Shown: positions 24,787 to 62,556, counted from the stretch's first letter. The stretch: 64,000 nucleotides of DNA from an uncultured delta proteobacterium (GCA_963717045.1 CAVQVD010000015.1:687747-751746); one strand, 5' to 3'. Made by a program: numbers and translations. The notes: a model not told the origin generated them from the letters alone.

Positions 24787-25070
24787 CAGACCTTTTCCTG
24801 TGGTTGGGCCTGTTGCTTGCCCTGGGTTTTTAGCGCTGGTCTGGAAGTGCGCCTGCAGCCGCTCTCCTTAAAGCTACATTTTGCGCCGACCATGGCGAAA
24901 GTGCATCCTACGTCGGGCATCTTTTCCCACTGGACGGCTGCCTGTTGGGCCTGGAGCCCCAGCTTTCCGAGCGCGGGCGAAAAGGCGGCGGCCGCCATGA
25001 GCGATCAGCCCTAGCCAGCAGTTCTGTTGACGCGGGCGGATGCTTCGCGTTATCGCCTTGGTTGAAACCT

Positions 25071-26375: not shown

Positions 26376-26388
26376 GAGACCGGAGTTC

Positions 26389-26970: not shown

Positions 26971-27045
26971 CGCCGCGGTCCGTTGCGGCCGCGCCTGCCG
27001 TTCTCCGACGTCGAGCCGGGACGTGCGGCGATAGCGGGGTGACAA

Positions 27046-28527: not shown

Positions 28528-28679
28528 AGGCCGTCGGCTGTGCCGTTAATAACTGGATCCGCAGGCGGCTGTAGCGATCTCTGTTCGGCGGGTGGTGTCG
28601 ATGCTATATGGAATTCGCCTGGTCGTTTTCGAATCGGTGGAAAAGTGGATTTCCGCAGAGGGTAAGGAGGCTGCGTTAA

Positions 28680-30314: not shown

Positions 30315-30330
30315 TACGCTGTTTTTTGAG

Positions 30331-31821
30331 GTGCAACCTGTGCTACCTGACGAACTGGAATTCCGGCCCGAGAACGCTCATGTGGTCAATCACAGCGGAA
30401 TGACCGTGCTGGTGGCCGCGAAGACCATGTCGTTGTTCACGATGGATCCGCTGTCGGAAGCTGTGCTGCAGTACTGCGAGAGCAAGCGGCGGTTCACGCT
30501 GGAAGATGTCGTCAAGCAACTCGCACAACCCGCTGGCGAGTTCGTCGGCGAAGACGTGGCGCACGTGGTGCGGGAATTCATGAACGTGGACGTGCTGATG
30601 GGTGGACAGAACAGCGCCCCAACCGCGCTCCCGTTCGTGGACACGGAAAAGTTTCCGCTAAGTTCCCTGGTGCTCAACGTCACCAATAAGTGCAACCTGC
30701 ACTGCACCTACTGCTACGAGCCGGACGGAGCCAAGTACGGCCCGGCGCCAGTGCGGATGGAATGGGAGACGGCGCGCTCGAGCGTGGACTTTCTGTTCGA
30801 GAAGGCGGGGCGAAACCGCGAGGTCAATATCGTTTTCTTCGGCGGCGAGGCGCTGCTCAATTTCAAGCTGATGAAGCAGGTGGTCGATTACGCCGAAAAT
30901 AAGAGCGTGGCGGTGGGCAAGAAGGTAGACTTTTCGATCACCACCAACGGGACGCTGCTGGTTGACGAGATAATCGACTTTCTGCAGGAGCATCGCTTCG
31001 GCGTGACGATCAGTATCGACGGGCCCAAGGAGATTCATGACCGCCGCCGCTTCTTTCTCAGCCACGCCGGCGAGAAGAAAGGCTCGTACGACCAGATCAT
31101 GAGCCGCGTCGAACGCTTGCTCGAGCGCTACACGGCGCGCCCGATCGTGGCCCGGGTCACAGTGACCAAGGGCGCGGTCGAAATCGTTCGGATTTACGAA
31201 CACCTGAGCGGCCTGGGATTCTTCGAGGTCGGGTTCTCGCCGGTGACCGCGAAGCCGGGACTTGATTACGGCCTCGAAGCGGCCGACCTGCGCGAGGTGC
31301 TGGCCGGGTTCAAGGAACTCGGCGGGCGCTACGTGGAGCGGGCGATCGGCGGTCAGTACACAGGCTTCTCGAACCTGAGCACGATGCTGACCGACCTGCA
31401 TCTTGGGACCAACAAGATGTTCCCGTGCGGCGCGGGCCTGGGGCTTCTCGACGTCGACGGCAACGGCGACGTATACCTGTGTCATCGGTTCCCCGGGGTC
31501 GAGGAACATAAGTACGGCAATGTGAAGCAAGGTGGAATCGAATACGGACGTCTAACCGAATTCGTCAACAGCGTGCAGGTGGGCAACAAGCCAGTGTGCC
31601 AGACCTGCTGGATTCGCGGAATCTGCGGGGGTGGATGTTATCACGAGGCACTGCAGGAGTTCGGTGAAGCGGCGCTGCCCAATTTGCACTATTGCGTATT
31701 TCTGCGCGAGTGGACTGAGTATGGGATCGGGGTGTTTACCGAACTCGAGCAGAAGAACCCGGGCTTTGTCGAAAAATATATCGTGCGAAGCCGTGGAGAT
31801 GTGCCCAAGGAACTGAGTTGA
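30331..31821 (+). CDS. qhpD: radical SAM/SPASM maturase for QHNDH gamma subunit
   Basis: CNLHCTYCY radical-SAM motif plus C-terminal SPASM Cys cluster (CQTCWIRGICGGGCYHE). Confidence 0.85.
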   Translation: MQPVLPDELEFRPENAHVVNHSGMTVLVAAKTMSLFTMDPLSEAVLQYCESKRRFTLEDVVKQLAQPAGEFVGEDVAHVVREFMNVDVLMGGQNSAPTALPFVDTEKFPLSSLVLNVTNKCNLHCTYCYEPDGAKYGPAPVRMEWETARSSVDFLFEKAGRNREVNIVFFGGEALLNFKLMKQVVDYAENKSVAVGKKVDFSITTNGTLLVDEIIDFLQEHRFGVTISIDGPKEIHDRRRFFLSHAGEKKGSYDQIMSRVERLLERYTARPIVARVTVTKGAVEIVRIYEHLSGLGFFEVGFSPVTAKPGLDYGLEAADLREVLAGFKELGGRYVERAIGGQYTGFSNLSTMLTDLHLGTNKMFPCGAGLGLLDVDGNGDVYLCHRFPGVEEHKYGNVKQGGIEYGRLTEFVNSVQVGNKPVCQTCWIRGICGGGCYHEALQEFGEAALPNLHYCVFLREWTEYGIGVFTELEQKNPGFVEKYIVRSRGDVPKELS

Positions 31822-31892
31822 TCGGGAACTGAGTTGCTGCCACCGGGCGCAGAATCCCGCGCCGTGCTCTGGACCCGTAACAGGAGGAGAAC

Positions 31893-32210
31893 ATGAAACA
31901 CTTGAAGGCGGCGAACAAGAAGGCCCGTGCGGTTGAAGCAATTCGCACGGGGGGAGACGTGGTCGGGATGGTGCAGCCGATGGGCTGTACCACGATTTTC
32001 AATCCCGGCTGGGAAGCCGACCCTTGGGGTGGCGCGCATGCGATGTGCAGTCCCACGGAAGCCGATCTGGCGGGATGCTCGGGCGTGTGCTGGTGGCCGG
32101 CACAAGTGCCGGACAGCCTGCAGAACTATCCTGAATGGGCAAAGGGCTGCTCCGGTGTGAACATGGAAGACTGGAGAAGCCTGAACGTGGAGTTCCCCAA
32201 AGTTAAGTAG
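31893..32210 (+). CDS. qhpC: quinohemoprotein amine dehydrogenase gamma subunit (CTQ and thioether-crosslinked peptide) with leader
   Basis: Numbering from Met25, Cys7/Glu16, Cys27/Asp33, Cys37/Trp43 and Cys41/Asp49 fall exactly at published QhpC crosslink/CTQ positions; CSGVCWWPAQV. Confidence 0.8.
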   Translation: MKHLKAANKKARAVEAIRTGGDVVGMVQPMGCTTIFNPGWEADPWGGAHAMCSPTEADLAGCSGVCWWPAQVPDSLQNYPEWAKGCSGVNMEDWRSLNVEFPKVK

Positions 32211-32365
32211 AGACGAACGCCTCGGCCGCCGCTGGCCGAGCAACTACATTGGCTTGTCGAGGGGCGTCGGCCTTGCATGCAAGGTGCGCGAGCCAGTCGC
32301 TTCGTCGCGGCCGCGCGCTCAAAGGGTGATCAGGTAGGCTGCAAGGCGAGTCGCAAAGGATTGTC

Positions 32366-33517
32366 ATGACCAACAAGAATGGTTGGCAGCTACGTCTGTA
32401 CGGTTCGTGGATTTTTGGACTCGCGCTGATGATGTGGGCGGGCACTGCGTCGGCCAAATGGTACATGGTCGTGGGGACGCTGCCCAACCTCATTCAGGTC
32501 GTCGACACCACGACTGACAAAGTTGTCAGGACTATTCCGTTGGAGGGTCCCGGGCCGATTCTGCAGGTCTCGACCGATTCTGCGACGCCGCGGTATGCCT
32601 ACGCGACGACCAACCTGGACCAAGCCGTCGCCGTAGTTGACCTGGAACAGGGTAAGCAGGTCGCGACCTACAAGCTGTCGAGCGATACCGAGACCGTACG
32701 GGTTTCGGCTACCAACCTTAATCCCAAGGGCGACAGGTTGTACATAAGCGAGCTGCCGCTCAAGGTGACCCCGGGCCGCTATCAGCACGAAGAGCAGCGC
32801 TTCGTGGTTTACGACACTGCGACCAACAAGGAAGTAAAGTCCTTTCCGGCGCCGGCGCAGACCCTATCGTTCGCATTCTCGCCTGATGGCAAACGGCTCT
32901 ACGCTTTCTGCGTTGGGCAGGACGTGATGGTGCTCGACGCGAACGACGGCCACGTGCTGGGCACGATTCCGCTCGCCCATCGCAATATCACGGGCATCCG
33001 CGCAACGTATGGGCTGCCCCTCCTGGCGAATTACCAGGAGCAGAATTACCTGATCACTTTCGCGATTATCGTCGAGGATTCAATAACCGATACCGACACG
33101 CTGGCGGTTGGCCTGCTCGACCTCAAGCAGCAGCAGCCGGCGCTGCAGATTATCGAGACCGAACCCTTCGTCGAGAACTGGTATTCGGTCGAAGGCATCG
33201 CCACCCCGCCCAACCTGCACAAGGCGTATTTCGTATGGAACGATCTCTGGAAAATCGATTACCAGACCAAGAAGCGGGAAAAAGCAGTCTCTCTTCCCAA
33301 TAGCCAAGCGGTGCCGCTGCTCTCGCCCGACGGCAAGAAGGTGTATTGCGGCGGCCAGTGGCATGCTCTCTTTGTTTACGATGCCAACACGCTCAATCAC
33401 ATCGACGACGTCGAACTCGGCCATTCGATGGCCGGGATCGGGATGCGGTTCGTGCAGAACGATAAAGATCTGGCGGCACCCGGATCCACCAGCCAGGATC
33501 CGCAAAGCTCACAATAG
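32366..33517 (+). CDS. qhpB: quinohemoprotein amine dehydrogenase beta subunit (seven-bladed beta-propeller)
   Basis: Signal peptide, 383 aa, YVTN-like propeller repeats, position in qhp operon. Confidence 0.7.
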   Translation: MTNKNGWQLRLYGSWIFGLALMMWAGTASAKWYMVVGTLPNLIQVVDTTTDKVVRTIPLEGPGPILQVSTDSATPRYAYATTNLDQAVAVVDLEQGKQVATYKLSSDTETVRVSATNLNPKGDRLYISELPLKVTPGRYQHEEQRFVVYDTATNKEVKSFPAPAQTLSFAFSPDGKRLYAFCVGQDVMVLDANDGHVLGTIPLAHRNITGIRATYGLPLLANYQEQNYLITFAIIVEDSITDTDTLAVGLLDLKQQQPALQIIETEPFVENWYSVEGIATPPNLHKAYFVWNDLWKIDYQTKKREKAVSLPNSQAVPLLSPDGKKVYCGGQWHALFVYDANTLNHIDDVELGHSMAGIGMRFVQNDKDLAAPGSTSQDPQSSQ

Positions 33518-33571
33518 TAAGTCAGGTTTGCGAGCGGATATCTGTTAACCGCATCCGCGAAAATTTAACTG

Positions 33572-34357
33572 GTGAGGAAGCCAACCGGCCGCCGTCTCCG
33601 TATCGCGGCCACGTCGCCGGAATTCGATCCCGAATCATTAGGCGCGCGCACGGGCGCGGGCGTTCGCGTCGCGCTCATCGATAGCGGGATCAACTCCGCC
33701 CATTCACACGTTGGTCCGCTCGCTGGCGGAGTAGCTTTTAGCGCCGGCTCTAACAGCAAGGTGCTGCAGAGCTCTGATTTTAACGACACTCTGGGACACG
33801 GTACCGCGCTGGCCGGAATTCTGAAATTCAAAGCGCCCGAGGCGACATTGTTCGCCGTGAAGGTTTTCACAGACCGCCTGGTGACGTCGATCGAAATTCT
33901 CGAAGCGGCACTCGGCTGGGCGATAGAGCAGAAGATGCACGTGATCAATCTGAGTCTAGGGACCGACAACCCCGCGCATCGTGCGCGGATGGCAAAGATA
34001 GCGGCGAGGGCCAAGCGCGCCGGAACGTTGATCGCCGCCTCGTCTCCACCCGGACGGTCAGACATGCTTCCCGCGGCCCTCGACGGCGTCTTCGGTGTGG
34101 CAGCGAGTGACGATTGTTCGTGGAGCGAGTACCGATACGTCCCGGACGACCCGATTCATTTCAGGGCTCACCCGTCGCCGCGCCCGTTGCCCGGCCTGGA
34201 CCAGTCGCGCAACTATCGCGGGCACAGCTTTGCCTCGGCGCATCTGAGCGCTTTGCTGGCGCTGCTGATTGAGGATCGCCCGGAGTTGGGATTCGCGAAC
34301 GCTCGCGAGCGCTTGTTGAAATGTACCGGACTGCCGCTGCCGTTGAAGAATCCTTGA
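33572..34357 (+). CDS. qhpE: subtilisin-like S8 serine peptidase (QhpC leader peptidase)
   Basis: Catalytic triad blocks ALIDSGI, HGTALAGI, GHSFASAH; GTG start. Confidence 0.8.
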   Translation: MRKPTGRRLRIAATSPEFDPESLGARTGAGVRVALIDSGINSAHSHVGPLAGGVAFSAGSNSKVLQSSDFNDTLGHGTALAGILKFKAPEATLFAVKVFTDRLVTSIEILEAALGWAIEQKMHVINLSLGTDNPAHRARMAKIAARAKRAGTLIAASSPPGRSDMLPAALDGVFGVAASDDCSWSEYRYVPDDPIHFRAHPSPRPLPGLDQSRNYRGHSFASAHLSALLALLIEDRPELGFANARERLLKCTGLPLPLKNP

Positions 34358-49300: not shown

Positions 49301-49417
49301 CTGACGCTGTATACGACCCCAGTGATTTTTCTCGCCTTCGAGCGCCTCGCGGCACGGACGACAACGGCGTCTGGTGACTCCGCGCACCCTGAGCCGGACC
49401 TCGCGCGCGCCTCATGA
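46301..49417 (+). CDS. mdtB: RND multidrug efflux permease (MdtB-like)
   Basis: 1038 aa, 12-TM RND pattern, tandem with second permease. Confidence 0.85.
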
Positions 49418-52400
49418 CGTTCTCAGAGACCTTCATCCGCAGACCTGTCGCGACCACGCTTTTGACCGTGGCGATCGCGCTGGCGGGTGCGACAGCATTT
49501 CGGTTGCTGCCGGTTGCTCCATTACCGGAAGTCGATTTTCCAACTATCCAGGTCAGCGGCAATTTGCCCGGCGCCAGTCCAGAGACGATGGCATCTTCGG
49601 TGGCGACACCACTGGAACGGCAGTTCGGGCGCATTGCGGGGTTGACCGAACTTACGTCGACCAGTGCGCTCGGAACTACCAACATCGTGCTGCAGTTCGA
49701 TTTGAACCGTAATATCGACGCAGCGGCGCGCGACGTGCAGGCCGCGATCAATGCTGCGCGCAGTCAACTGCCAGCCAATCTGCCAAGCAACCCGACCTAC
49801 AAGAAAGTAAATCCAGCCGATGCACCGATTCTGATCCTGGCACTGTCTTCCAGTACACTGCGCCGTGGCCTGATCTACGATGCGGCGGATTCGGTTTTGG
49901 CGCAGAAGTTGTCGCAGATTCAAGGTGTGGGTCAGGTTACGGTCGGAGGCAGTGCGCTGCCCGGCGTTCGTGTCGAGCTGAATCTCAACGTCTTGAACAA
50001 CGACGGCATCGGTCTCGAGCAAGTGCGCAGTGCGATCAAGAACGCCAACGCCAACCGCCCCAAGGGAGAGGTCGCCGATCAATCCAATGCCTGGGCGCTA
50101 AACGCCACCGACCAACTACTCAGCGCCGATCAGTACCGCCCGCTGATCATCGCCTATCACAACGGCGCCGCCGTTCGCCTTTCCGACGTAGCCGACGTGG
50201 TGGATTCGGTTGAAGACGTGCGCAACGCGGGAGTCGTTGACGGCACTCCGTCAGTTCTAATCATCATTTTCCGGCAACCCGGCGCCAACATTATCGCCAC
50301 GGTGGATCGGGTGCTCGCGGACCTGCCCCAGTTGCAGGCTTCGATTTCCCCGGCGATCAAGATGTCCGTGGTGCTTGACCGGACCACGACCATTCGCGCG
50401 TCCGTCAATGACGTCGAGTTGACCCTGCTCATCTCGATCGCGCTGGTCATCATGGTGGTATTTTTCTTTCTGCGTAACTGGCGAGCCACCGTGATTCCAG
50501 GCGTGGTAGTTCCGATTTCGCTGATTGGAACCTTCGGCGTCATGTATCTATGCGGGTATAGCCTCGACAACCTCTCACTGATGGCGCTGACTATTTCCAC
50601 CGGCTTCGTCGTCGACGACGCGATCGTGGTTATCGAGAACATCTCTCGCTACCGTGAGGAGGGCATGGCGCCTTTCGAAGCGGCCGTTCGCGGAGCGCGC
50701 GAAATCGGATTCACGGTGGTCTCGATCAGTATTTCGCTGGTCGCGGTGTTTATCCCGATCTTGCTAATGGGCGGAATCGTGGGTCGCCTGTTCCGCGAAT
50801 TCGCAGTCACCCTGTCGACGGCGGTGGTGGTTTCGATGATCGTTTCGTTGACCACTACACCGATGATGTGCGCCAAGCTGCTGCGGTCCGAGGCTGACGA
50901 GCAGCACGGTCGCTTCTACCGGGCGAGCCAGAGAGTTTTCGACCGCGCGCTGGCTGGATATACGATCGGACTCGAGTGGGTGCTGCGGTATTCACGCTTC
51001 ACCCTAGCGATAGCCCTGCTCACGGTCGGTCTTAGCGTGTACCTGTTCTCGGTCATCCCCAAAGGATTTTTTCCACAGCAGGATACTGGCCGTCTGATGG
51101 GCGCTATTCAGGCCGACCAGGACACCTCGTTTCAGTCGATGCGCGATCGGCTCACCGAGTTCGTCCGCGTCATCAAGGCGGACCCGGCCGTCGATCACGT
51201 GATCGGATTTGCCGGAGGAAACGCCGGCAGCACCAACTCGGCCCGCATGTTCATCGCCCTGAAACCGCTCGCGCTGCGCAAACTCAGCGCCGATCAGCTC
51301 ATCGCGCGGCTGCGCAAAAAGACCGCACACATCCCGGGTGCGACGCTCTATCTTCAAGCCGTGCAGGATCTGCGCATCGGCGGCCGCTCGAGCAACGCGC
51401 TCTATCAGTACACCCTCCAAGGATCCGACCTGCAGGAGCTTAACCAATGGGCACCGCGCCTGCTCCAAAAAATGCGCGCTATGCCGATACTGACCGACGT
51501 GAATAGCGATCAGCAGAACAGCGGTCTTCAGGCCGCCCTGGTGGTAGACCGCGATAGCGCATCGCGCCTGGGGCTCACGCAACAGGTGATCGACGATACA
51601 TTGTACGATGCCTTCGGCCAGCGTCAGGTATCGACGATGTATACGCCGCTGAATCAATATCACGTCGTGATGGAAGCCGCGCCCAGGTATTGGCAAGATC
51701 CCACTTCGCTGTCGCAACTCGACGCGCGCTCGACTAATAACACTGAAGTCAAACTTAGTACCTTCACCCACTACCAGCCGACCACCACCGCGCTCTCGGT
51801 GAATCATCAGGGACAATTTCCCTCGGTGACGGTCTCGTTCAACCTGAGGCCGGGCGTTTCTCTCGGCCAAGCGGTGGTGGCGATCGATGCGACTCAGAGG
51901 AAAATCGGTTTTCCAAGCAGCATTCACGGCAGCTTCGCGGGCACCGCCCAGGCCTTCCAGGATTCGCTGGCGAACGAACCGATGCTGGTCCTGTCCGCGC
52001 TCTGCGCCGTCTATATCGTGCTGGGAATTTTGTACGAGAGTTACGTTCATCCGGTAACGATTCTTTCGACTCTGCCTTCCGCCGGTGTCGGTGCGCTGCT
52101 GGCATTGATGGTGTTCCGCATCGACCTGACCGTCATCGCGCTCATCGGTATCATTCTGCTGATTGGTATCGTCAAGAAAAACGCGATCATGATGATCGAC
52201 TTCGCCCTGGAAGCTGAGCGCAAGCATGGCAAAACCTCCCTGGAAGCCATCGAGGAAGCTTGTCGCTTGCGCTTTCGGCCGATCATGATGACCACGATGG
52301 CGGCGCTGCTCGGCGCCTTGCCGCTGGCAGTGGGTAGCGGCACCGGTTCGGAACTGCGCCGACCGCTCGGAATCGCAATTGTCGGCGGTCTGATCGTGAG

Positions 52401-52530
52401 CCAGATGCTCACGCTGTTCACCACGCCGGTGATCTATCTATATATGGAACGGCTTCGACTATGGGGTGAAAGCCTGCGCAGACGCATTTCGCGCAAGCCC
52501 GCGATCGGGCCGGGAATCGCCGACGTCTAG
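49414..52530 (+). CDS. mdtC: RND multidrug efflux permease (MdtC-like)
   Basis: 1038 aa paralog of preceding permease; start overlaps its stop (ATGA). Confidence 0.85.
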
Positions 52531-52588: not shown

Positions 52589-53662
52589 CTAGTACTTCGC
52601 GATAACTTCGTTGCCGAACTCGCGAATCATTTCGCGGCCGTCGGTCCCGGTGAGACGCAGCGCTATGCCCGTCACGCCAGCCTCTTCGAGTTCTTTGACA
52701 CGTTCGATTACCGCCGACGCCGGTCCCGTTATGGTAGTCGCCTCGAGCAGTTGCCGCGTAACGTACCGTTCCTCTCCCGGCTTGGTAAAGATCAGATGCC
52801 CCAGGTGAATTTCCTGGTATCGCTTCTCCCACGGCGTTTTCATTTTCATTATGTATTCGTCGAAGTAGCGTTTGGCCAACGGCTGAAATTCGGGGGGCGC
52901 AAAAGGACCAATCGGGGTGTTTTCCGGATGCCAGATAGTGTGCAAGCTGAGCGCGCCCCAGGAACCAAGGCGAGCGAAAACCCGGGGTGACATGATGTCT
53001 TCCCCTCGGCGCAACACGCATCCCGCCGTCACTATGACGGTCGGAATTTTCTCGAGCGCCCGTCCAGCGCCCTTTGCCGCGTTGCGGATCTCGGTAAGTC
53101 CGTCCCGAATCAATCCCGGGTTCGCGCCCACCGTAATCCAGCCGTCGCCAACTTCGCCCACCACGCGGGTGGCCTTGGGCAGATTGGCGCCTACGTAAAT
53201 CGGAACCGGATCTTTGACGTTGATGAAACCCATCTCGGGATGAAGCAGACGCACCGCTCGCTCCCGATCGTCTTCGCGGTAGAGGCCTTCCTTCCCGGCC
53301 AGCAGTTCGCGCAATAACTTGACCTCTTCGGCCAGCGCTTTGACCGGCGTCGCCGGCATCCCCATGACATTGCGCGCGCTGAAACCGGTTCCTATGCCGG
53401 CGATCACGCGGCCGGGCGCGAGTTCGTTGATCGTAGCTATGGCGGACGCGCTGACCGGCGCCGCGCGGTTGCCCGCGCATAGAACGAAGGTTCCCAGAAC
53501 CGACGTGTGCGAGTGCTCGGCCGCCAGAGCCATGGTGGCGAAGATGTCGCTGTAACACATATGCGAATCGTCGAACCAGGCATGACTGAAGCCGTATTCT
53601 TCCGCCATTTCCACGTCACGCCAGGCGCGAATGTAGGTTGGATAGCTGATTCCGAATTGCAT
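52589..53662 (-). CDS. LLM-class flavin/F420-dependent oxidoreductase
   Basis: 357 aa luciferase-like fold pattern (MQFGISYPT..., GRVIAGIGTG). Confidence 0.7.
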   Translation of the reverse strand: MQFGISYPTYIRAWRDVEMAEEYGFSHAWFDDSHMCYSDIFATMALAAEHSHTSVLGTFVLCAGNRAAPVSASAIATINELAPGRVIAGIGTGFSARNVMGMPATPVKALAEEVKLLRELLAGKEGLYREDDRERAVRLLHPEMGFINVKDPVPIYVGANLPKATRVVGEVGDGWITVGANPGLIRDGLTEIRNAAKGAGRALEKIPTVIVTAGCVLRRGEDIMSPRVFARLGSWGALSLHTIWHPENTPIGPFAPPEFQPLAKRYFDEYIMKMKTPWEKRYQEIHLGHLIFTKPGEERYVTRQLLEATTITGPASAVIERVKELEEAGVTGIALRLTGTDGREMIREFGNEVIAKY

Positions 53663-53878: not shown

Positions 53879-54769
53879 ATGAGCATTAGACACCTTGCCG
53901 CCTCCGCCAGTGCCGACGACATCGCCGCTGCGCTCGCTGAGGATGGAGCCGCGATCGTCGACGCTCTCGGGCCAGCGTCTCTGATGGACCGAGCCGCCGA
54001 GGAGTTGCAGCCGTACATCGCAGCGACGCGCATCGGCCGCGATGATTTCGCGGGGCGCCACACGCGCAGAACAGGTGGACTGATAGCGCGCTCGGAAACC
54101 TGCCGCGAGCTGGTGATGAACCCGCTCGTACTGTCGACGGCCAAGAAGATGCTGGCGCATGCCGCAACTTTTCAAATCCATCTGACGCAAGTCATCACGA
54201 TCGAGCCGGAAGCGCCGCCTCAGGCAATTCATCGCGACCAGTGGGTATTCGATTTTTTCAAGTTTCCGAAGGGCTTCGAGGTTCAACTCAACACGATTTG
54301 GGCGATGACTGATTTCACGGCGCAAAATGGCGCGACTCGCGTCATTCCCAAGAGTCATCTGTTCGATGACGGACTCAAGTTCGAGGAAAAGGATAGTGAA
54401 CCGGCCGAGATGGCCAAGGGTTCGGCACTGTTCTACACCGGAAGCGTTTATCACGGCGGCGGCGCCAATCGCTCGAACATGACTCGATGCGGTATCAATC
54501 TAACCTACAGTCTTTCGTGGTTGCGGCAGGAAGAAAACCAATATTTGTCGGTGCCGTTGGAGATCGCGCAAACCTTGCCGGTCGAATTGCTGCGCTTGAT
54601 GGGCTATGCATACGGCGGCTATGCGCTCGGTTACGTGGACGACGTTCGCGATCCGATTAAAGTCGTGAAACCCGACCTGGCAAAGACTCGCACCACAAAC
54701 CTTGCCGATGCGGAATCGCGTTTTCGCGATCAAGCGAAGCAGTGGCGGGGCGAAAACAAGAACGCCTGA
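53879..54769 (+). CDS. phytanoyl-CoA dioxygenase (PhyH) family Fe(II)/2-oxoglutarate oxygenase
   Basis: PhyH-family pattern including HRDQ and HGGGAN blocks. Confidence 0.7.
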   Translation: MSIRHLAASASADDIAAALAEDGAAIVDALGPASLMDRAAEELQPYIAATRIGRDDFAGRHTRRTGGLIARSETCRELVMNPLVLSTAKKMLAHAATFQIHLTQVITIEPEAPPQAIHRDQWVFDFFKFPKGFEVQLNTIWAMTDFTAQNGATRVIPKSHLFDDGLKFEEKDSEPAEMAKGSALFYTGSVYHGGGANRSNMTRCGINLTYSLSWLRQEENQYLSVPLEIAQTLPVELLRLMGYAYGGYALGYVDDVRDPIKVVKPDLAKTRTTNLADAESRFRDQAKQWRGENKNA

Positions 54770-54817: not shown

Positions 54818-55579
54818 TTGACAGTGAGTTCGATTGTGTGTCAGCGTCCGAACGAACGTTCGGACGTACGCGCGAGACTCGGGCTCGCGTTAGGCGCAGA
54901 AATGCCGATGGACAATCGTAAGAGGACCCTGGTTGCATCCAAGACGCGGGCTCCCGCGGTTAGTACTAAAAGCCGTATCGACCGCGGAGCGGCGCGGCTC
55001 TTCGTCCGCAATGGCTACGACGGCACTTCGATGCGCGATCTGGCGCGCAATCTCGGCCTGCAGCCCTCCAGTATCTATGGCCACGTGAAGAGCAAGCAGG
55101 AATTGCTCTTCCGGGTGATGGAACGGCTTATGGACGAAGTGCTGACACGCGCCAACGAGGCGCTAAAGACAGACGGCCGGCCCGAGGAGCTGGTGCGAAG
55201 ATTGGTGGTCACGAATATCTGCCAGCCGGGACCCTATGAAACGGCGCTCTTGCAGTCAGGGCTCAAGAGTCTGCAGCCGTCGTACCGCGCATCGATAGCT
55301 CGCAAGCAAAGAGAATATCGTACCCTATGGCTCAGGGTCCTTGAGGACGGCAAGAAACAAGGAGTCTTCAGGATCAGAGATCCCAAGCTCGCCTTCCTAG
55401 GCATCGACGGAGCGCTTGTCCACATCGAGCGCTGGTTCAATCCCACCGGTCGATTGACGCGCCTGGAGGTAGCCGAGGTGTTCGTCGACTGGATCCTGAA
55501 CTCTCTAGGCTTTCAACCACCGGGGAAAAACCGCAGCGGAGACATTGCTAATGCGAAAAGGGCAAGACTACGTCGATAA
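54818..55579 (+). CDS. TetR/AcrR-family transcriptional regulator (start may be ATG 54902)
   Basis: HTH RIDRGAARLFVRNGYDGTSMRDLARNLGL. Confidence 0.65.
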   Translation: MTVSSIVCQRPNERSDVRARLGLALGAEMPMDNRKRTLVASKTRAPAVSTKSRIDRGAARLFVRNGYDGTSMRDLARNLGLQPSSIYGHVKSKQELLFRVMERLMDEVLTRANEALKTDGRPEELVRRLVVTNICQPGPYETALLQSGLKSLQPSYRASIARKQREYRTLWLRVLEDGKKQGVFRIRDPKLAFLGIDGALVHIERWFNPTGRLTRLEVAEVFVDWILNSLGFQPPGKNRSGDIANAKRARLRR

Positions 55580-56975
55580 TTTAAGTCATTTAAAAAGCCG
55601 CGTTTTCGTGCAGGGACAGCTCGTCGATAATTTGGCAGAGCACCCGCTGTTCCAATCGACGATTTTCGCGTGGGGCAAATGGCTCTGCGACGCGGCCTTC
55701 GAGCCTGAGTTGCAGAGCCTGATGACCGCCAAATCGGAACTCACCGGCGACGAGGTGCACATCTTTTGGCACATCCCCACCGATCGGGACGGGTTGCTCC
55801 AAAATTTCGACGCTGCGATCAAGCTGGCCGAACGCGTGCCGATTACCGGATACACAAGTATCGCGCGGGACGAGCTCGCCGGCCTTCTCTCCGTCCTGCC
55901 GGAAGTCGATCGAAAATACGAAACTGATTACACAGGACGCTTGAAGGAGTATCTGCGAACCTTTCAACGCCGCCAGTTTATCGGCTCCGCCGCCATTACG
56001 GATGTGAAGGGCGACCGCAACCTTCGCCCTTCGCAACAGCCCGACCCGGATATGTATCTACGCGTGGTCGAGCGAAGAAAGGATGGAATCGTCGTGCGCG
56101 GTGCAAAAGCCCACACCAGCGGCGGCGTCGTGTGCGAGGAATTGATCGTGATCGCGCAGCGTGCAATGCGCGAGGATGACCGCGATTATGCAGTCGCTTT
56201 TGCCATTCCTGTCGACACTCCCGGAATTACCCTGGTGGCGCGCGGCATCGGCATGCCGGCGGATGCGGAGCAGGCTCCCTTGAGCCATGGTGGCGCGGTT
56301 GTCGAATCCCTGACTATTTTCGACGACGTGTTCGTGCCGGCGGAACGCATCTTCTTGTGCGGCGAGTACGAATTCTGCGGCGACGTCGCCAACAATTTCG
56401 CAACTATCAATCGTCACGGTTACCTGGGAACGGACTATGGCAAGTTGGAGCTTTTCATCGGCGCTGCGGCGCTCATCGCGGAGTATAACGGAGTCGCCGA
56501 CAAGCCTCACGTCCGCGACAAGATTGCGGAAATGATCAAACTGGCGAGCGCTATTTATGCGCTGGGAATAGCCGCCGCGATGAAACATACGGTCATCAAT
56601 GGCGTGGCCTTCCCCGACGCGGTCATGACAAATGCGGGTAAGCATTTGACCATGGAGGCTCACTACACCTGCTCCCGCCTGCTCAACGAGGTGGCCGGCG
56701 GGGCCGCGGTGACAATGCCATCGGTATTAGACCTGAAGCATCCAGAGGTCGCTCCCTATATCGAAAAGTACTTCAAGGCTGCCCCCGGAGTCTCTGTGAC
56801 CGATCGGATCAAGCTCTTCCATTTCATCGGCGACCTCTGCTCCTCGGAGTATGCGGGATGGTGGTACAACGAGATTATCCACGGTTCGGGATCGCCGGCT
56901 GCGGAACGGATGCAGATGTATCGAGAATTCGACCTTGAATCGACCAAGCGACTAGTCAAGACATTGATTAGCTGA
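55545..56975 (+). CDS. 4-hydroxyphenylacetate 3-hydroxylase (HpaB) family protein, possibly 4-hydroxybutyryl-CoA dehydratase-like
   Basis: N-terminal YVDNLSHLKSRVFVQGQLVDNLAEHPLF typical of HpaB/AbfD family; 476 aa. Confidence 0.65.
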   Translation: MLMRKGQDYVDNLSHLKSRVFVQGQLVDNLAEHPLFQSTIFAWGKWLCDAAFEPELQSLMTAKSELTGDEVHIFWHIPTDRDGLLQNFDAAIKLAERVPITGYTSIARDELAGLLSVLPEVDRKYETDYTGRLKEYLRTFQRRQFIGSAAITDVKGDRNLRPSQQPDPDMYLRVVERRKDGIVVRGAKAHTSGGVVCEELIVIAQRAMREDDRDYAVAFAIPVDTPGITLVARGIGMPADAEQAPLSHGGAVVESLTIFDDVFVPAERIFLCGEYEFCGDVANNFATINRHGYLGTDYGKLELFIGAAALIAEYNGVADKPHVRDKIAEMIKLASAIYALGIAAAMKHTVINGVAFPDAVMTNAGKHLTMEAHYTCSRLLNEVAGGAAVTMPSVLDLKHPEVAPYIEKYFKAAPGVSVTDRIKLFHFIGDLCSSEYAGWWYNEIIHGSGSPAAERMQMYREFDLESTKRLVKTLIS

Positions 56976-57020
56976 GAGCGCGCGGATGGGGAGCGGCACG
57001 GCGCGCTCGCGAGCAAGAAC

Positions 57021-57863
57021 CTAGACTTGGTATTTTTTGCTGGTCTCGAGGATCTCAGGCGCCCCAAGAAGATCGGTGATTTCGGGTAGAATTTCGAAGC
57101 CGGGGCCGCCGGAGATCATGCCCGTGCGCGCAAGCTCCCTCATCGCATCGCGGGTACGCTGATAAATAGCAAAAAGCGTGGCGATATGGATCATCACCTT
57201 GAAGCCGTATTGCGCGATTTCCGTCGGATGCAGTAATTGTCCGTTATACAGGAGCGGCAGTCCTGTGAGCAGCCGCGCACAGTTTCTGAGATCGTCGAGC
57301 GTCTTGATGCCATCGACGAAGATGAGATCGGCGCCGGAGGCGCGGTAAGCGCGCGCCCGCCGCGTCACCTCTTCCCAACCGAGCGGGGCAAGTGCGTCGG
57401 TGCGCGCGATAATCACCAGATTGGGATCGCGCCGGGCATCGAGGGCCGCGCGCAGCTTGGCTTCCATGTTCTCCCGCGGGATGACCTGCTTGCCCTCCAG
57501 AAAGCCGCAACGCTTGGGCCACACCTGGTCTTCGATATGCAATGCCGCCGCGCCCGCGTCCTCGTACTCGCGCACGGTGCGTTGCACATTGATCGCTTCG
57601 CCATAGCCCGTGTCGGCATCGCAGATAAGCGGTATGTCCACCGATCGCGCAAGTGCTCTGACGTTCTCGACCATTTCGCCCATCGTAAGCAGGCCGAGAT
57701 CCGGGAATCCGCGCGCCGCGGCCGTTCCGAAGCCGGTCATGTAGATCGCCTTGAATCCCTCGTGCTGCGCGAGCCTCGCCTGCAGGCAATCGTAAACGAA
57801 CGGAGCGACGACCATATCCGGCCCGTTCAAGAGCTTTCGCAGGCGTGATCGTGTTTCAAGCAT
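57021..57863 (-). CDS. isocitrate lyase/PEP mutase superfamily enzyme (methylisocitrate lyase / carboxyvinyl-carboxyphosphonate phosphorylmutase-like)
   Basis: ICL/PEPM pattern (DADTGYG, KRCGFLEGK). Confidence 0.75.
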   Translation of the reverse strand: MLETRSRLRKLLNGPDMVVAPFVYDCLQARLAQHEGFKAIYMTGFGTAAARGFPDLGLLTMGEMVENVRALARSVDIPLICDADTGYGEAINVQRTVREYEDAGAAALHIEDQVWPKRCGFLEGKQVIPRENMEAKLRAALDARRDPNLVIIARTDALAPLGWEEVTRRARAYRASGADLIFVDGIKTLDDLRNCARLLTGLPLLYNGQLLHPTEIAQYGFKVMIHIATLFAIYQRTRDAMRELARTGMISGGPGFEILPEITDLLGAPEILETSKKYQV

Positions 57864-57882
57864 GTGCGCTATGTCCTTGTGC

Positions 57883-59322
57883 TCAGAAGATCTCGAAGTA
57901 CTCGCGCTGTTCCCATTCGGTAACTTCTAAATCGAAGCGCGCGACCTCGGCCTCTTTGATGAGAGAATAATAATCGACGAATGTGCCGCCGAGTCCGGCG
58001 CGCAAGCATGAGTCTGCGCGCAGCGCCGCGATTGCTTCGGTGAGCGAGCGCGGCAGCATCCTCGCCGCGGCTTCATAGGGCGCGTCGGTCGGTGGTCCCG
58101 GGTCGAGTTGGCGCTCAATCCCGTCGAGACCCGCGAGAATTTGCGACGCCATATACAGGTATGGATTCGCGGCCGGCTCGCCCACGCGGTTCTCGAGCCG
58201 CGTCGCCGAATCCCCAGGCCCGCCAAGCACCCGGACCATAACGTTGCGATGGTCGTGTCCCCAAACCGCGCGGTCGGGTGCCAGGGCATGTCTGCCGAAG
58301 CGTCGATAGCCATTGATGGTCGGTGTCGCAAGCGCGGCCGCGCCCGGCGCGTGCTCGAGAAGACCGGCAAGGTAATGCTGTCCGACCGGCGACAGCACGC
58401 CGGCGTCACCAGCGGGGACGAACGCGTTGGCTCCGGTGCGTTTGTCGCGCAGCGACTGATGCAGGTGCCAGCCGCTGGAGAATACGTTCGGAATTCGCGG
58501 TCGGCACATGAAGCTCGCAAGGTAACCGTGACGGCGGCAAACCTGCTTCATCGCGCTGCGCGCCAGTATCATCATGTCGGCTGGTTCGAGGCCCTGACGC
58601 GGCTGGAACGTGAACTCGCATTGACTCGGTCCGTACTCGACCTCGAGCGTGCGCAAAGGCAGGCCCAGCCCCACGATGTTGCGGCGCAAAATTTCGAGCA
58701 CGGGTTCGAGCTGATCGTAACGCAGCTCCGTCAGGTGCTGATAGCCCTGCGTAAGCAGACTGACCTCGGGCGGCGGTCCAGGCTGACCCGCGTCGCTGAG
58801 CTGAAGTCGCGGGTTTTCAAGCTTGAAGATGTGAAATTCAATTTCCAGTCCGACTACGTAATTGAAGCCTGCTTCAGCGAGTCGGTCCAGCGCGCGCCGG
58901 TACAGGTAGCGAGTCGAGATCGGAACCGGCTGGCCATTGGTGAAATACAGATCGCACAGCAGCCAGGCGGTGCTGGCCGCCCATGGCAGAATATGGAATG
59001 TGGCCGGGTCCGGAACGATGACCACGTCCGCGGCCGCTTCCATGTCGCGCCTGGTGAAACCGGCGCCGCTCAACGAAAGCACGGATGGCACCGTGTGATG
59101 TGCGGTATCTTTCGCCAGCAGCGTCATCGGGAAGGTGCTTCCCTCGCGCATCATCCGCGGCAGTTCGTCGGCGACGATTGTCTTGCCCCGCAGCACTCCA
59201 TGCTGATCGGCGAAGGAGAGCCGCACGACCTCGAGCTGTTGGGACTCGACGCGCTTTTCGGCCTCGTTCGCCGCTTTCGCCCGCTCGTCGGTCCACAGGC
59301 CGTGACGTTCGACGAAACTCAT
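57883..59322 (-). CDS. glutamine synthetase-like gamma-glutamyl-amine ligase family protein (second copy)
   Basis: Same blocks as 27046-28527 (FVERHGLW, VVGLEIEFHIFKLE, EYGPSQCEFTF). Confidence 0.8.
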   Translation of the reverse strand: MSFVERHGLWTDERAKAANEAEKRVESQQLEVVRLSFADQHGVLRGKTIVADELPRMMREGSTFPMTLLAKDTAHHTVPSVLSLSGAGFTRRDMEAAADVVIVPDPATFHILPWAASTAWLLCDLYFTNGQPVPISTRYLYRRALDRLAEAGFNYVVGLEIEFHIFKLENPRLQLSDAGQPGPPPEVSLLTQGYQHLTELRYDQLEPVLEILRRNIVGLGLPLRTLEVEYGPSQCEFTFQPRQGLEPADMMILARSAMKQVCRRHGYLASFMCRPRIPNVFSSGWHLHQSLRDKRTGANAFVPAGDAGVLSPVGQHYLAGLLEHAPGAAALATPTINGYRRFGRHALAPDRAVWGHDHRNVMVRVLGGPGDSATRLENRVGEPAANPYLYMASQILAGLDGIERQLDPGPPTDAPYEAAARMLPRSLTEAIAALRADSCLRAGLGGTFVDYYSLIKEAEVARFDLEVTEWEQREYFEIF

Positions 59323-59385
59323 CTCATCGCGCTCCGCATTTCGGCCCGCGCAGATCCTTCTTTAGCTCATCAACTAACCTGCGTA

Positions 59386-60783
59386 TCATTCGGCGCGCTC
59401 CTGCGCCGCCCAGGCCGAGCTCTGTCGGCGTCGCGTATCGAAATTCTTCCAGTATGCCTCTAGCGCCTGGCTGGGAGCGATTCCGTCGAGCGTAATTGGA
59501 CCACGCATGCGTTCGGCAGCGGCCTCATCCAGGACCATCAGCGGCTGCTTGCCTGCAGCAGCCCCTTCGATCGCGTCGATCAGAATCCTGCGATAAGCCG
59601 TTATTGCTTTATCCGACGCGCCGAGGTGCTCACGCGTGCGATCCTGAATCGGTCCCTGCGATTCGACTGCCCATTGGTCGTGAACGTTTATGTCTTCGCC
59701 CATGCCCGTATACGTCTGCCGGCGCTGCTCCACCGCGTCGAATCCATAATTGTTCGCGGCATTGAGCCGCGGCTTGTAATCCGGCAGCGTGTAGAGCTCG
59801 AGCCGATGACGGCGCATTGCCTCCTTGTCGACCTTTCCGGCAAAGCTGGTGAAAATCGCGTACCAGTAACAACTTACGTCGTCGATCGGTACTTGCCACT
59901 GCGTAACCGTCATCTCGGGACTTAGTGGAATGACGAAGGCGTTGGGAAACAGTAAATTGGTTACGCGAATATGAGTCCACGAATCGTCGAGCTCGCGCAA
60001 GGTTATGATCCGAAAGCCATAATCCGTGTATTCAGTTTCGATGTGCGGGCGCGGATACTCCCGCATGATTTTCGTCATCGGCAGTGTCGAGTCCGCCGAA
60101 GTACTACGAAACTGTATCCCATAGTTCTCAGCGGGGTCATGGTCTTCGAAAAACCGATGTAGAAACGATGCGTGGGCGGGATCGATTCCGACCTCCAGCG
60201 TCTGTAGCCAGTTGCAGCCGACGTATCCTTTAAAGGCGAAGGTGTACGCGTCTGGCGCTATGAAACAGTCGAAATGCGGGAACGCCGGCGGCTCACCGGG
60301 GCCCAGATAGGCAAACAGGATGCCGTTGCGTTCGCGAACAGGGTAGCCATTGTGGCGAATCTTGGTGTGAAGCTTGCTCCCCTCCGGCTCCGCCGGCGTC
60401 TCGAGACATTTTCCGCTGATGTCAAATAACCAGCCGTGGAATGCGCAACGGAGACCGCCGTTTTCGAGGCGGCCGAAAGCGAGATCCGCGCCGCGATGCG
60501 GACAGGAGCGGTCGACGAGTCCATAGCGCCCCTGCTCGTCACGAAAAAGCACCAATTTCTGCCCGAGTAGCTCGATCGCCTTGACCCGGCGCTCCGTCGC
60601 CAGCTCTTCGACCAATGCGGCAGGCTGCCAGTAAAGCCGCATCAGTTTTCCGGCTGGCGTACCCTGCCCGGTCCGGGTGATCGTCTCGTTGCGTTGGGCG
60701 CTCATCATATGAGAGGGCTCGTGAACGATCGGCGCGCGATGCGCAGGTCCGTCCGTTAAGCTAATCGCGGTCGAGCTTATCAA
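59386..60783 (-). CDS. Rieske oxygenase alpha subunit, single-component VanA/phthalate-family type (no beta subunit)
   Basis: LYWQPAALVEEL then Rieske CPHRGADL...CAFHGW. Confidence 0.8.
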   Translation of the reverse strand: MISSTAISLTDGPAHRAPIVHEPSHMMSAQRNETITRTGQGTPAGKLMRLYWQPAALVEELATERRVKAIELLGQKLVLFRDEQGRYGLVDRSCPHRGADLAFGRLENGGLRCAFHGWLFDISGKCLETPAEPEGSKLHTKIRHNGYPVRERNGILFAYLGPGEPPAFPHFDCFIAPDAYTFAFKGYVGCNWLQTLEVGIDPAHASFLHRFFEDHDPAENYGIQFRSTSADSTLPMTKIMREYPRPHIETEYTDYGFRIITLRELDDSWTHIRVTNLLFPNAFVIPLSPEMTVTQWQVPIDDVSCYWYAIFTSFAGKVDKEAMRRHRLELYTLPDYKPRLNAANNYGFDAVEQRRQTYTGMGEDINVHDQWAVESQGPIQDRTREHLGASDKAITAYRRILIDAIEGAAAGKQPLMVLDEAAAERMRGPITLDGIAPSQALEAYWKNFDTRRRQSSAWAAQERAE

Positions 60784-60831
60784 GCGCGATGCGGTGGTGA
60801 CAAACCAGCCCTCCAGTGGCCGGACCGTTGC

Positions 60832-61800
60832 TCAGAGCTTCGGAATAACCTCGCTGGCCAGCAGTTCCAGATGCTCAATTTCATCGAAGACCGGATTCAA
60901 TAATAAGTGTCGGGCGCCGGCGCGAACGATCTCTCCCAACTTGTCTATACACTCCGCGCGATTGCCCCAGATGGAGACGCGCGAAGCCATCTCTGCGTTC
61001 TTGTAGCGCATGCCAAACCAATCGCGCAGCCGGCGCTCCGCACGCGCCCGATCGTCGTCGATGGCTATGTAGACACGCTTCGAGATCGTGAATTCGTCGG
61101 GGTCGCGTTTGGCTTCTTCAAGGAAGCGCCGCAACTGCTCGGCCTGCAGGACGAAGTCAGCCGAGGAAGAGGAGCCGGCTCCCATCCAGCCGTTGCCAAG
61201 GCGGGCCGCGCGCTTCAGGGCCACAGCGTCACGAGCGCCAAACCATAGCGGTGGATGCGGCTTTTGCGCGGGCTTCGGTTCCATGGCCACGTTCTCAAAC
61301 CGCCAGAATTCGCCGTTCATTGTCGCCCTGGGCTGCGTCCATAGTTCTTTCATGACCTGAAGCCCTTCGACGAAACGACGCCCACGGCGTTCGCTGGACA
61401 CGCCGAAGACTGACTCGGGCACGTGTGCGCCGCCAATCCCCACGCCGACGATGAGCCGTCCGCGACTCAGTTGATCCAGCGAGGCCAGGCTTTTGGCTAA
61501 TTGAACGGGATTGCGAATCACGGTTAGCAGCACGGAGGTGCCCAAGTGAGGTTTCGACGTGAGGGCAGCAGCGTATGTGAGTAGCGTAACCGGCTCAAGG
61601 ATCGGAGCGTCACCGATGATCTGCTCCTGGACCCACAAGCCTTCATAGCCGAGCGCTTCCGCTCGCGGAAGAAATCGACGGATGACGCCCGCATCGGTCG
61701 AGGGATCGGCGAAACTTTGGGGGATTGCGATGCCGCAGGGGATATTACCTATAGTCATATAAGCCATGCTCCTTGTAGAACAGATTCTTTCTGTGAGCAC
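60832..61800 (-). CDS. LLM-class F420/flavin-dependent oxidoreductase
   Basis: 322 aa luciferase-like pattern (GRLIVGVGIGG, PHPPLWFGA). Confidence 0.7.
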   Translation of the reverse strand: MLTERICSTRSMAYMTIGNIPCGIAIPQSFADPSTDAGVIRRFLPRAEALGYEGLWVQEQIIGDAPILEPVTLLTYAAALTSKPHLGTSVLLTVIRNPVQLAKSLASLDQLSRGRLIVGVGIGGAHVPESVFGVSSERRGRRFVEGLQVMKELWTQPRATMNGEFWRFENVAMEPKPAQKPHPPLWFGARDAVALKRAARLGNGWMGAGSSSSADFVLQAEQLRRFLEEAKRDPDEFTISKRVYIAIDDDRARAERRLRDWFGMRYKNAEMASRVSIWGNRAECIDKLGEIVRAGARHLLLNPVFDEIEHLELLASEVIPKL

Positions 61801-61821
61801 TTTACATCTTCGCGATGATCA

Positions 61822-62556
61822 TCATGTGAAATGGCCAGCGAAATAGCCGGGTAGCAGGCTGGGGAGCATGCGGACCGGCACTTCTTCGACCGCACCTTGC
61901 GCTAAGCTTCCGAGCTGGAACGGTCCATAGGCGATCCGGATCAGGCGAGTCACGCGCAAGCCGAATATTTCGAGCAACTTCTTTATTTCGCGGTTTTTGC
62001 CTTCGTGCAGCGTCATGGTCAGCCAGCAATTGCTGCCCTGGCGACTATCGAGGACTGTCTGCACAGGGCGGTAGCGGACGCCATCAATAGTCAGTCCTAG
62101 GGCAAGCTTCGCAATCATCGCTTCATCCAGCTCGCCATGAGCCCGAATTCGGTAGCTGCGGGAAATCGCCTGGGCTGGATGTTCGAGATAACGTGCCAGT
62201 TCGCCATCATTGGTCAGTAGCAAAAGACCTTCGGTATTGATGTCGAGGCGTCCGACGGAAATCAAACGCGGCAGCGTTTTGGGAAGCGAGGCGAAGACGG
62301 TCGAGCGTCCCTGAGGATCGCGGGCGGTCGTAACGAGTCCGGCGGGCTTGTGATAACGCCAGAGTTTGGATTGGTCCGGAACAGTTACCGCTTTGCCGTC
62401 GACCGCCAGTGCATCGTCGAGTCCGACCAGCGTTGCGGGATGTTTCACGAGGGCGCCATTCAGCGTCACCCGACCTTCTTCGATGAGCCGTTCGGACTCG
62501 CGGCGGGACGCCACCCCGGCACGCGCCACTAATTTAGCGATTCTTTGCTTTGCCAC
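61822..62556 (-). CDS. pseudouridine synthase, RsuA/RluB family
   Basis: S4 domain plus catalytic GRLDINTEGLLLLTNDG. Confidence 0.8.
   Translation of the reverse strand: MAKQRIAKLVARAGVASRRESERLIEEGRVTLNGALVKHPATLVGLDDALAVDGKAVTVPDQSKLWRYHKPAGLVTTARDPQGRSTVFASLPKTLPRLISVGRLDINTEGLLLLTNDGELARYLEHPAQAISRSYRIRAHGELDEAMIAKLALGLTIDGVRYRPVQTVLDSRQGSNCWLTMTLHEGKNREIKKLLEIFGLRVTRLIRIAYGPFQLGSLAQGAVEEVPVRMLPSLLPGYFAGHFT

Follow-up and report, generated by a model that had tools for sequence, protein, structure and literature searches.

We analyzed two adjacent genes at positions 57883 to 60783 of a 64,000-nucleotide stretch of DNA from an uncultured delta proteobacterium (GCA_963717045.1, CAVQVD010000015.1:687747-751746). 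The whole of that stretch is called the window here, and positions given without a locus name are counted from its first letter. The first gene of the pair encodes a Rieske non-haem-iron oxygenase and the gene behind it a ligase that resembles glutamine synthetase (GS). A preliminary description of the window had recognized both open reading frames (ORFs) and had noted a second GS-like gene at 27046-28527, about half identical to the first. The ORFs are real and lie on the minus strand, and the two GS-like proteins are identical at 238/478 positions (50%). The pair is laid out as follows.

60709..60831, minus strand: intergenic region 5' of the oxygenase gene, 123 nt (sequence read)
59386..60708, minus strand: sadA-like Rieske non-haem-iron oxygenase, alpha subunit only, 440 aa (Pfam Rieske and LigXa_C)
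59323..59385, minus strand: spacer between oxygenase and ligase genes, 63 nt, with GGAG ahead of the ligase ATG (sequence read)
57883..59322, minus strand: sadB-like GS-like ligase, predicted gamma-glutamyl-arylamide synthetase, 479 aa (Gln-synt_C, 1.4e-77)

The longest oxygenase ORF runs from 59386 to 60783 on the minus strand, its 60783 end being a TTG start, and an ATG-ATG is read at 60708. Because the approximately 240 listed homologues are all 434-455 aa long and begin with MMS/MLS..QNE, the true start is likely the ATG at 60708, a correction of 75 nt. No frameshifts are present. In the oxygenase, the catalytic motifs are intact: the Rieske motif is whole (C69-x-H71 ... C88-x-x-H91), as are the mononuclear-iron and bridging residues (D176/H179/H184/D344). 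The Pfam scan returned Rieske (E 1.2e-19) and LigXa_C (E 2.9e-28) domains and no VanA_C domain, and none of the neighbouring ORFs scanned contains Ring_hydroxyl_B, the beta subunit. By domain content, then, the enzyme belongs to the alpha-only oxygenases (Group I) within the phthalate family. The preliminary description had said as much; its further label of "VanA-type" does not fit a protein whose C-terminal domain is LigXa_C.

The closest solved structures are the phthalate 4,5-dioxygenases 7fhr and 7fjl (E ~1e-62, or ~1e-72 using the family profile). Like phthalate 4,5-dioxygenase PDO_KF1 (PDB 7fjl/7v25; PMC8649396), the window oxygenase has the Rieske motif, the 2-His-1-Asp site and the bridging aspartate (D178 there, D176 here), and it keeps Arg231 and Arg244 as R238 and R248. 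The differences are considerable. Identity is approximately 35%, and of the phthalate-binding residues Arg207, Ser179, Ser182, Phe280 and Phe339 none is kept: L/M/I, Pro, Ala, Ala and an invariant Asp stand in their places, the first three being L209, P177 and A180 in the window. The window gene has no adjacent PDR-type reductase gene and, unlike PDO, has a ligase as its partner. Since neither the substrate-binding set nor the reductase partner is kept, we would not count the window oxygenase among the phthalate 4,5-dioxygenases.

The ligase falls below every NCBIfam cutoff for GS and for PuuA (gamma-glutamylputrescine synthetase), scoring 219 bits against a cutoff of 429 for TIGR00653 and 95 against 845 for PRK09469. 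The canonical flap motif of type I GS (GSI) is GYEAP. In the window ligase the motif reads NGYRRF, with Arg at the position of the GSI flap Glu. The best PDB match is NpaA1 (8wwu; 434.7 bits, 43.5% identity), with a 240-bit lead over the next structure. NpaA1 glutamylates 1-naphthylamine and anilines, and its ammonium-site residues are likewise lost (PMC11335346). In the alignment, E227 and E229 of the window ligase match NpaA1 E232/E234. Because the GS scores are below cutoff, NpaA1 is the best relative and the flap Glu has become Arg, the sequence indicates that this is not an ammonia-specific GS, the one reading of the ligase that would have undone the idea of gamma-glutamyl-amine oxidation offered in the preliminary description. 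That frame is the right one.

When the window ligase was looked up in the assembly index as an exact sequence, there was no match. A profile search with the oxygenase in a collection of 185,579 genomes, one for each species, found at least 600 matching stretches. We analyzed the best 80 of these together with contigs from an exact look-up, 83 non-redundant loci in all. Five end right behind the oxygenase gene, which leaves 78 that can be assessed. The GS-like gene is intact, immediately 3' of the oxygenase gene and on the same strand in 72/78; it is split in one and lacking in five. Carriers include Bradyrhizobium, Afipia, Reyranella, Ferrovibrio, Methylobacterium, Novosphingobium, Pigmentiphaga, Caballeronia, Paraburkholderia, Variovorax, Polaromonas and Azoarcus, so that the loci span Alpha- and Betaproteobacteria plus another "uncultured delta proteobacterium" metagenome-assembled genome (MAG), here called L013. 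Among the matches listed, L013 is the closest relative of the window (87% identity for the oxygenase, 91% for the ligase), and the genes that flank the pair there, namely QueC, pseudouridine synthase and LLM oxidoreductase, are in synteny with those of the window. A second close relative, L001, is 83% identical in the oxygenase and 91% in the ligase. The Alpha- and Betaproteobacterial oxygenases are 63-69% identical to that of the window. Nine oxygenase residues (D176, P177, H179, H184, R238, R248, W282, D339 and D344) are invariant in 78/78 family members.

The pairing extends to a distant member: on a Pseudooceanicola plasmid, where oxygenase identity is ~50%, a GS-family gene is still 1.5 kb away. 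In the next tier examined, a P. caribensis Rieske gene with ~36% identity has no GS gene beside it; it has a PDR/VanB reductase and lies next to ligAB. Across the 78 loci, pairwise identities of oxygenase and ligase correlate with a Pearson coefficient of 0.89. Shared phylogeny contributes to this value, which at the level of sequence shows that the two genes are inherited together. No NCBIfam model names this two-gene unit.

The five loci with an oxygenase gene and no adjacent ligase gene (L016, L017, L072, L014 and L041) may form a sub-branch that either dispenses with glutamylation or relies on a ligase encoded elsewhere. In L016, the oxygenase gene is followed by a 325-aa ORF with a signal-peptide-like start (2631-3608), by reading possibly a TctC-type binding protein. 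In both L016 and L017 (8753-11314), a gene with a gyrB-like beginning follows on the opposite strand, and a conserved ORF of 282-285 aa lies upstream. The split GS-like gene, in a MAG (L022, 11499-13090), consists of ORFs of 368 aa and 131 aa and could be either a pseudogene or an assembly frameshift.

Two other kinds of neighbour were seen at a minority of loci. Hydantoinase/oxoprolinase A and B genes adjoin the pair in L001 (11385-15328), L004 (1882-6921; also L012 and L028) and L098 (1-3051). The lineages concerned are three unrelated ones, namely the window relative L001, Pigmentiphaga and Pseudooceanicola, and in the first two RidA is present too. We considered these genes as pathway partners, for example in salvage of 5-oxoproline from gamma-glutamyl compounds, and set the idea aside because they occur near the pair in these three lineages only. 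A protein of ~113 aa annotated as 5-carboxymethyl-2-hydroxymuconate isomerase, with no NCBIfam match, is encoded beside the pair in five loci (L095 11955-12296; L020 ~6772; L034 ~8074; L039 ~8346; L098 8364-8702), including that of a sulfanilate degrader, strain SA1.

The architecture of the pair has a precedent. In Hydrogenophaga intermedia PBC, SadA (4-aminobenzenesulfonate 3,4-dioxygenase), SadB (a GS) and SadD take part in deaminating 4-aminobenzenesulfonate; the sad operon is conserved across the genus, and its original substrate has been argued to be probably a natural compound structurally near 4-aminobenzenesulfonate (PMC5632844). In Novosphingobium, Group I (alpha-only) oxygenases encoded directly beside a GS gene are monophyletic with SadA, and their natural substrate has been asked about (PMC3704786). 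By the account of these two papers, the Sad system of Gan et al. 2012 shares with the window an alpha-only Group I Rieske gene directly before a GS-like gene. SadA is WP_009515254.1 and SadB is WP_009515256.1, and accession numbering suggests that the SadA, SadB and SadD genes are consecutive. The window differs in having no ferredoxin, reductase or 4-sulfocatechol genes nearby, in its host, which belongs to a "delta proteobacterium"-type MAG lineage and not to the Comamonadaceae, and in the diverged ligase tunnel residues of its clade. No linked SadD-type ferredoxin or SadC-type reductase was found in the window; most family loci are also without them, so they may not define the family.

Two relatives bear on this comparison. 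N. resinovorum SA1, the sulfanilate degrader, carries on the catabolic plasmid pSA3 an oxygenase that is 63-64% identical to that of the window, followed by a GS-family gene (59%). The region around the pair is rich in insertion sequences and includes genes for maleylacetate reductase, a 2Fe-2S ferredoxin, an FAD reductase and a glutaminase, the last of which exceeds its curated cutoff. A Polaromonas JS666 plasmid carries a complete operon: a GntR gene, then Rieske, GS, ferredoxin, reductase, five Liv-type ABC genes and a type 1 glutamine amidotransferase, which has a match in L085. M. nodulans, like JS666, adds a 2Fe-2S ferredoxin and an FAD reductase to the pair. The ligases of SA1, JS666 and M. 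nodulans are 57-65% identical to the window ligase. A few kb from the JS666 operon (L096, 1078-4668) are genes for a CBASS oligonucleotide cyclase, an AAA ATPase and a DUF6602 protein, which are unrelated anti-phage genes.

The aniline and naphthylamine systems (AtdA1-A5, TdnQTA1A2B and NpaA1-A5) use the same logic: a GS-like ligase makes a gamma-glutamyl-arylamide that a Rieske dioxygenase converts to a catechol (PMC11335346). Their dioxygenases are alpha3beta3 enzymes of the naphthalene/biphenyl family, whereas the window oxygenase is of the phthalate family and has no beta subunit. They also include a GAT-like hydrolase, which none of the window neighbours encodes, and their ligase tunnel is hydrophobic (F75') where that of the window is cationic (K71/H75).

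Because the pairing is conserved in 72/78 loci, and given the Sad precedent, the SA1 copy, the JS666 operon and the kinship with NpaA1, we propose, with a probability of about 70%, that the window pair is a SadA/SadB-type module by which an aromatic amine loses its amino group in two steps. A module of this kind has already been described; what it contributes is a routine peripheral reaction in the breakdown of aromatic amines, and the system is not new.

From gene content, gene order, conservation and residue patterns we infer the following substrate class, reaction order and products. The ligase would use ATP to form gamma-glutamyl phosphate and join it to the arylamine nitrogen, yielding an N-gamma-glutamyl-anilide, as AtdA1 and NpaA1 do. 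The oxygenase, drawing electrons from an unlinked ferredoxin and reductase, would then add O2 over the carbon that bears the amide nitrogen (ipso) and its ortho neighbour. The resulting hemiaminal diol would collapse to glutamine and a catechol; the glutamine would be recycled to glutamate, and the catechol would enter ring-cleavage pathways encoded elsewhere. The SA1 glutaminase and the amidotransferase-like gene of JS666 make gamma-glutamyl/glutamine chemistry a good fit.

Both proteins offer clues to the substrate. The amine-tunnel loop of NpaA1 spans V68'-M81', and its bottleneck is formed by F75' and F86' (PMC11335346). When we mapped this loop onto an alignment of 75 family ligases, Lys was found at position 71 (equivalent to NpaA1 F75') in 75/75, His at 75 in 74/75 and Arg or Lys at 76 in 72/75. 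NpaA1 and the ligase encoded at 27046-28527 have Phe, Ser/Asn and Ser/His at these positions. In phthalate dioxygenase, Arg244 binds the substrate carboxylate (PMC8649396); the aligned residue in the family is the invariant R248. The gene context points the same way. PnbB, the 4-hydroxylaminobenzoate lyase of 4-nitrobenzoate catabolism, is encoded within 10 kb of the pair in Aliidongia, Caballeronia, Paraburkholderia and Methylobacterium, and in Methylobacterium pnbB adjoins a nitroreductase gene. Because of the Lys/His/Arg patch in the ligase, the invariant oxygenase R248 and the presence of pnbB near the pair in four genera, the family substrate is probably an anionic para-substituted aniline. 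The best natural candidate would be 4-aminobenzoate, giving protocatechuate, while the demonstrated xenobiotic is 4-aminobenzenesulfonate, giving 4-sulfocatechol.

Regulator genes by the pair include a divergent IclR in ~40 loci and a GntR in 10. Peripla_BP_6/Liv-type ABC genes are found in 22-44 loci, many of them in Bradyrhizobium-type genomes and so not independent. In ~14-20 Bradyrhizobium/Xanthobacteraceae loci, the pair lies beside ORFs that by reading resemble benzoate-CoA ligase, a BoxC-like dihydrodiol lyase and a regulator combining helix-turn-helix and shikimate-kinase-like parts (for example L045 3158-4861, L046 7188-8735 and L050 7090-8010). These box (aerobic benzoyl-CoA) neighbours probably reflect genus-level synteny, yet they fit an aromatic-acid context.

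Paraburkholderia terrae KU-15 is reported to have a 4-aminobenzoate operon, pab, in which the GS-like PabA forms gamma-glutamyl-4-carboxyanilide, the multicomponent dioxygenase PabB1-B3 converts it to protocatechuate and PabC hydrolyses the amide. A literature search for this pathway and for gamma-glutamyl-4-carboxyanilide found nothing, so the precedent counts as a lead. Such an operon would match the content of the JS666-type operon and the pnbB neighbourhoods; the window has none of its ferredoxin, reductase or hydrolase genes.

Several points weigh against the deamination module as we propose it. Orthology to the PBC proteins is putative and rests on architecture, the SA1 copy and published monophyly; homologue searches seeded with the SA1 and Polaromonas proteins, and a look-up of cluster members, gave no Hydrogenophaga entry. 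The original sad study, as reported in PMC3704786, proposed that SadB acts after hydroxylation. The residue arguments depend on alignments at 35-45% identity, and turnover of 4-aminobenzoate by the SadAB-type family is undocumented in the literature examined. The clade formed by the window, L001 and L013 has P65, M66, P79, L82 and H196 in the ligase in place of the consensus residues T, T, F, F and Y, and the window ligase alone has H76 instead of R/K. In a tblastn search, the JS666 ferredoxin and reductase were found in 10 related loci and nowhere in the 64-kb window, and no GAT-like hydrolase, transporter, IclR/GntR regulator or pnbB gene is near the pair there.

What does surround the pair in the window is listed below.

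53879-54769: PhyH (Pfam scan)
54818-55579: TetR (Pfam scan)
55545-56975: HpaB-like (Pfam scan)
57021..57863, minus strand: PEP-mutase/isocitrate-lyase-family gene, 19 nt 3' of the ligase gene (PEP_mutase 2.6e-47)
60832..61800, minus strand: F420-dependent LLM-class oxidoreductase, Rv2161c family (Bac_luciferase 2.8e-55; TIGR03619 185 bits vs cutoff 166.9)

The PEP-mutase-family gene is probably co-transcribed with the ligase gene. It scores 224 bits against a cutoff of 354 with the prpB model, among solved structures it comes closest to 2,3-dimethylmalate lyase and oxaloacetate acetylhydrolase, and it is found 3' of the ligase gene in the window and L013 only, being absent from L001 and all other loci. 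The LLM gene sits 5' of the oxygenase gene across the 123-nt gap. L001 and L013 share with the window the gene order QueC, pseudouridine synthase, LLM, Rieske, GS (LLM homologues at 6953-7879 and 8952-9875, respectively), which is absent from other loci; the LLM gene is a neighbour conserved in the window lineage only and at most a putative partner of the module. The gap itself (60709..60831) is the most likely site of a promoter or operator for the module, and a sigma-70 consensus scan of 56800-62000 gave no match. A second luciferase-like gene lies at 52589-53662 (minus strand), and F420 use in an organism labelled "delta proteobacterium" may help its taxonomic placement.

The preliminary description had also pointed to PhyH, HpaB-like, ICL/PEPM and TetR genes nearby. 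These genes are all present, but three of them do not stay with the pair: L001 and L013 both lack HpaB and TetR, and of the two only L013 has PhyH. We rejected PhyH, HpaB and TetR as members of the module. Nothing points to recent horizontal acquisition, the GC content being even (0.57-0.64 over 50-64 kb) and the QueC/pseudouridine-synthase synteny kept. Upstream of this region, a full-length RND efflux pump of the AcrB/AcrD/AcrF family is encoded at 49414-52530 (plus strand; 1038 aa, 1094 bits).

These surroundings bear on the first alternative, in which the chemistry is the same and the window clade acts on a different substrate: a neutral or otherwise different arylamine, or a non-aromatic amine, perhaps together with the PEPM-family lyase and the LLM protein. 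The clade's departures from the tunnel consensus at ligase positions 65, 66, 79, 82 and 196, with position 76 added in the window, would suit such a change, as would the retention of LLM in L001 and L013, that of PEPM in L013 and the absence of the usual regulator and transporter genes. Against this, ligase K71 and H75 are unchanged in the clade, as are all the oxygenase pocket residues that were compared (R238, R248, W282, A284 and D339), PEPM is missing from L001, and LLM is set apart by the 123-nt gap. We consider a different substrate unlikely. The more specific proposal, that the pair has been retuned to an amine other than 4-aminobenzoate or sulfanilate and forms an undescribed pathway with the dimethylmalate-lyase-like gene and LLM, seems to us a little less likely again.

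The order of the two steps could also be the reverse, with the oxygenase dihydroxylating the free arylamine and the GS-like protein then removing or transferring the amino group. The original sad study mentioned above put forward this order, as reported in PMC3704786. In the aniline and naphthylamine systems, though, the gamma-glutamyl amide is the proven dioxygenase substrate and the ligase acts first (PMC11335346, citing Takeo 2013). The retained E227 and E229 are what would be expected of an active ligase, and the GAT-like hydrolase of JS666 and the glutaminase of SA1 fit gamma-glutamyl or glutamine chemistry. We regard the reverse order as distinctly improbable.

The preliminary description had raised the idea of N-demethylation of methylated amines. 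On that view the oxygenase would be an N-demethylase or N-dealkylase like GbcA, Stc2, CntA or NdmA, hydroxylating a methyl or alkyl group of a gamma-glutamylated aliphatic amine to release an aldehyde and glutamine. The broad alpha-only Rieske group does hold N-demethylases, the ligase clade that contains NpaA1 also has an isopropylamine enzyme (PMC11335346), and no aromatic ring-cleavage genes adjoin the window pair. The solved N-demethylases NdmA and NdmB, however, match the oxygenase weakly (~47 bits) and mostly over the N-terminal Rieske part, as is also the case for DdmC, and the NCBIfam GbcA model does not match. The catalytic domain is LigXa_C and nearest to phthalate dioxygenase, and the closest described system, SadA/SadB, deaminates an aromatic ring (PMC5632844, PMC3704786). 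The recurrent neighbours are pnbB, IclR/GntR regulators and transporters of the aromatic-acid type; formaldehyde or C1 genes are not among them. N-demethylation finds no support here and is very unlikely.

It is barely credible that the two genes are adjacent without being coupled, the GS-like protein working in general nitrogen or polyamine metabolism while the oxygenase is an independent phthalate-type dioxygenase: database names ("phthalate 4,5-dioxygenase", "glutamine synthetase") would suggest it, but the gene order is kept in 72/78 loci across classes, the P. caribensis homologue that has no GS gene has the PDR/VanB reductase next to ligAB instead, the phthalate-binding Arg207, Ser179 and Ser182 are not conserved, and the ligase is below the curated GS and PuuA cutoffs.

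The pair is not the only cluster of ligase and Rieske oxygenase genes in the window. The second GS-like gene belongs to another cluster, followed directly by further genes, all on the plus strand.

24945-26375, plus strand: cluster 1 alpha subunit, Ring_hydroxyl_A
26389-26970, plus strand: cluster 1 beta subunit, Ring_hydroxyl_B (E 4.3e-28)
27046-28527, plus strand: cluster 1 GS-like ligase
28680-30314, plus strand: haem-binding alpha subunit
30331-31821, plus strand: radical-SAM protein
32366-33517, plus strand: beta-propeller protein
33572-34357, plus strand: subtilase

The cluster 1 oxygenase (alpha and beta) is of the aniline/naphthylamine-dioxygenase type, and the cluster (24945-28527) resembles Atd/Npa. 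The preliminary description was correct in assigning the two GS-like copies to different oxygenase partners: the first to an alpha plus beta enzyme of the naphthalene/biphenyl type, the second to an alpha-only enzyme. In a neighbour-joining tree rooted on NpaA1, the second window ligase is nested in a clade of 77 Rieske-linked ligases and the first lies outside it. By this placement, the two ligases are anciently related rather than recently duplicated, and each was recruited together with a different type of oxygenase. The genes directly after cluster 1 form an apparent quinohemoprotein amine dehydrogenase operon, and the whole stretch (24945-34357) looks like an amine-catabolism island.

One genome thus holds both architectures of a strategy in which an amine is glutamylated and then dioxygenated. 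The cationic gate of the ligase, the Arg of the oxygenase and the pnbB context lead to a testable prediction, namely that the alpha-only version acts on anionic para-substituted anilines, 4-aminobenzoate above all. A prediction of substrate class could improve genome annotation and guide bioremediation of sulfanilate and other anilines. The wider value of the finding is the picture of the family: a tight two-gene unit, matched in at least 600 stretches, that has no NCBIfam name.

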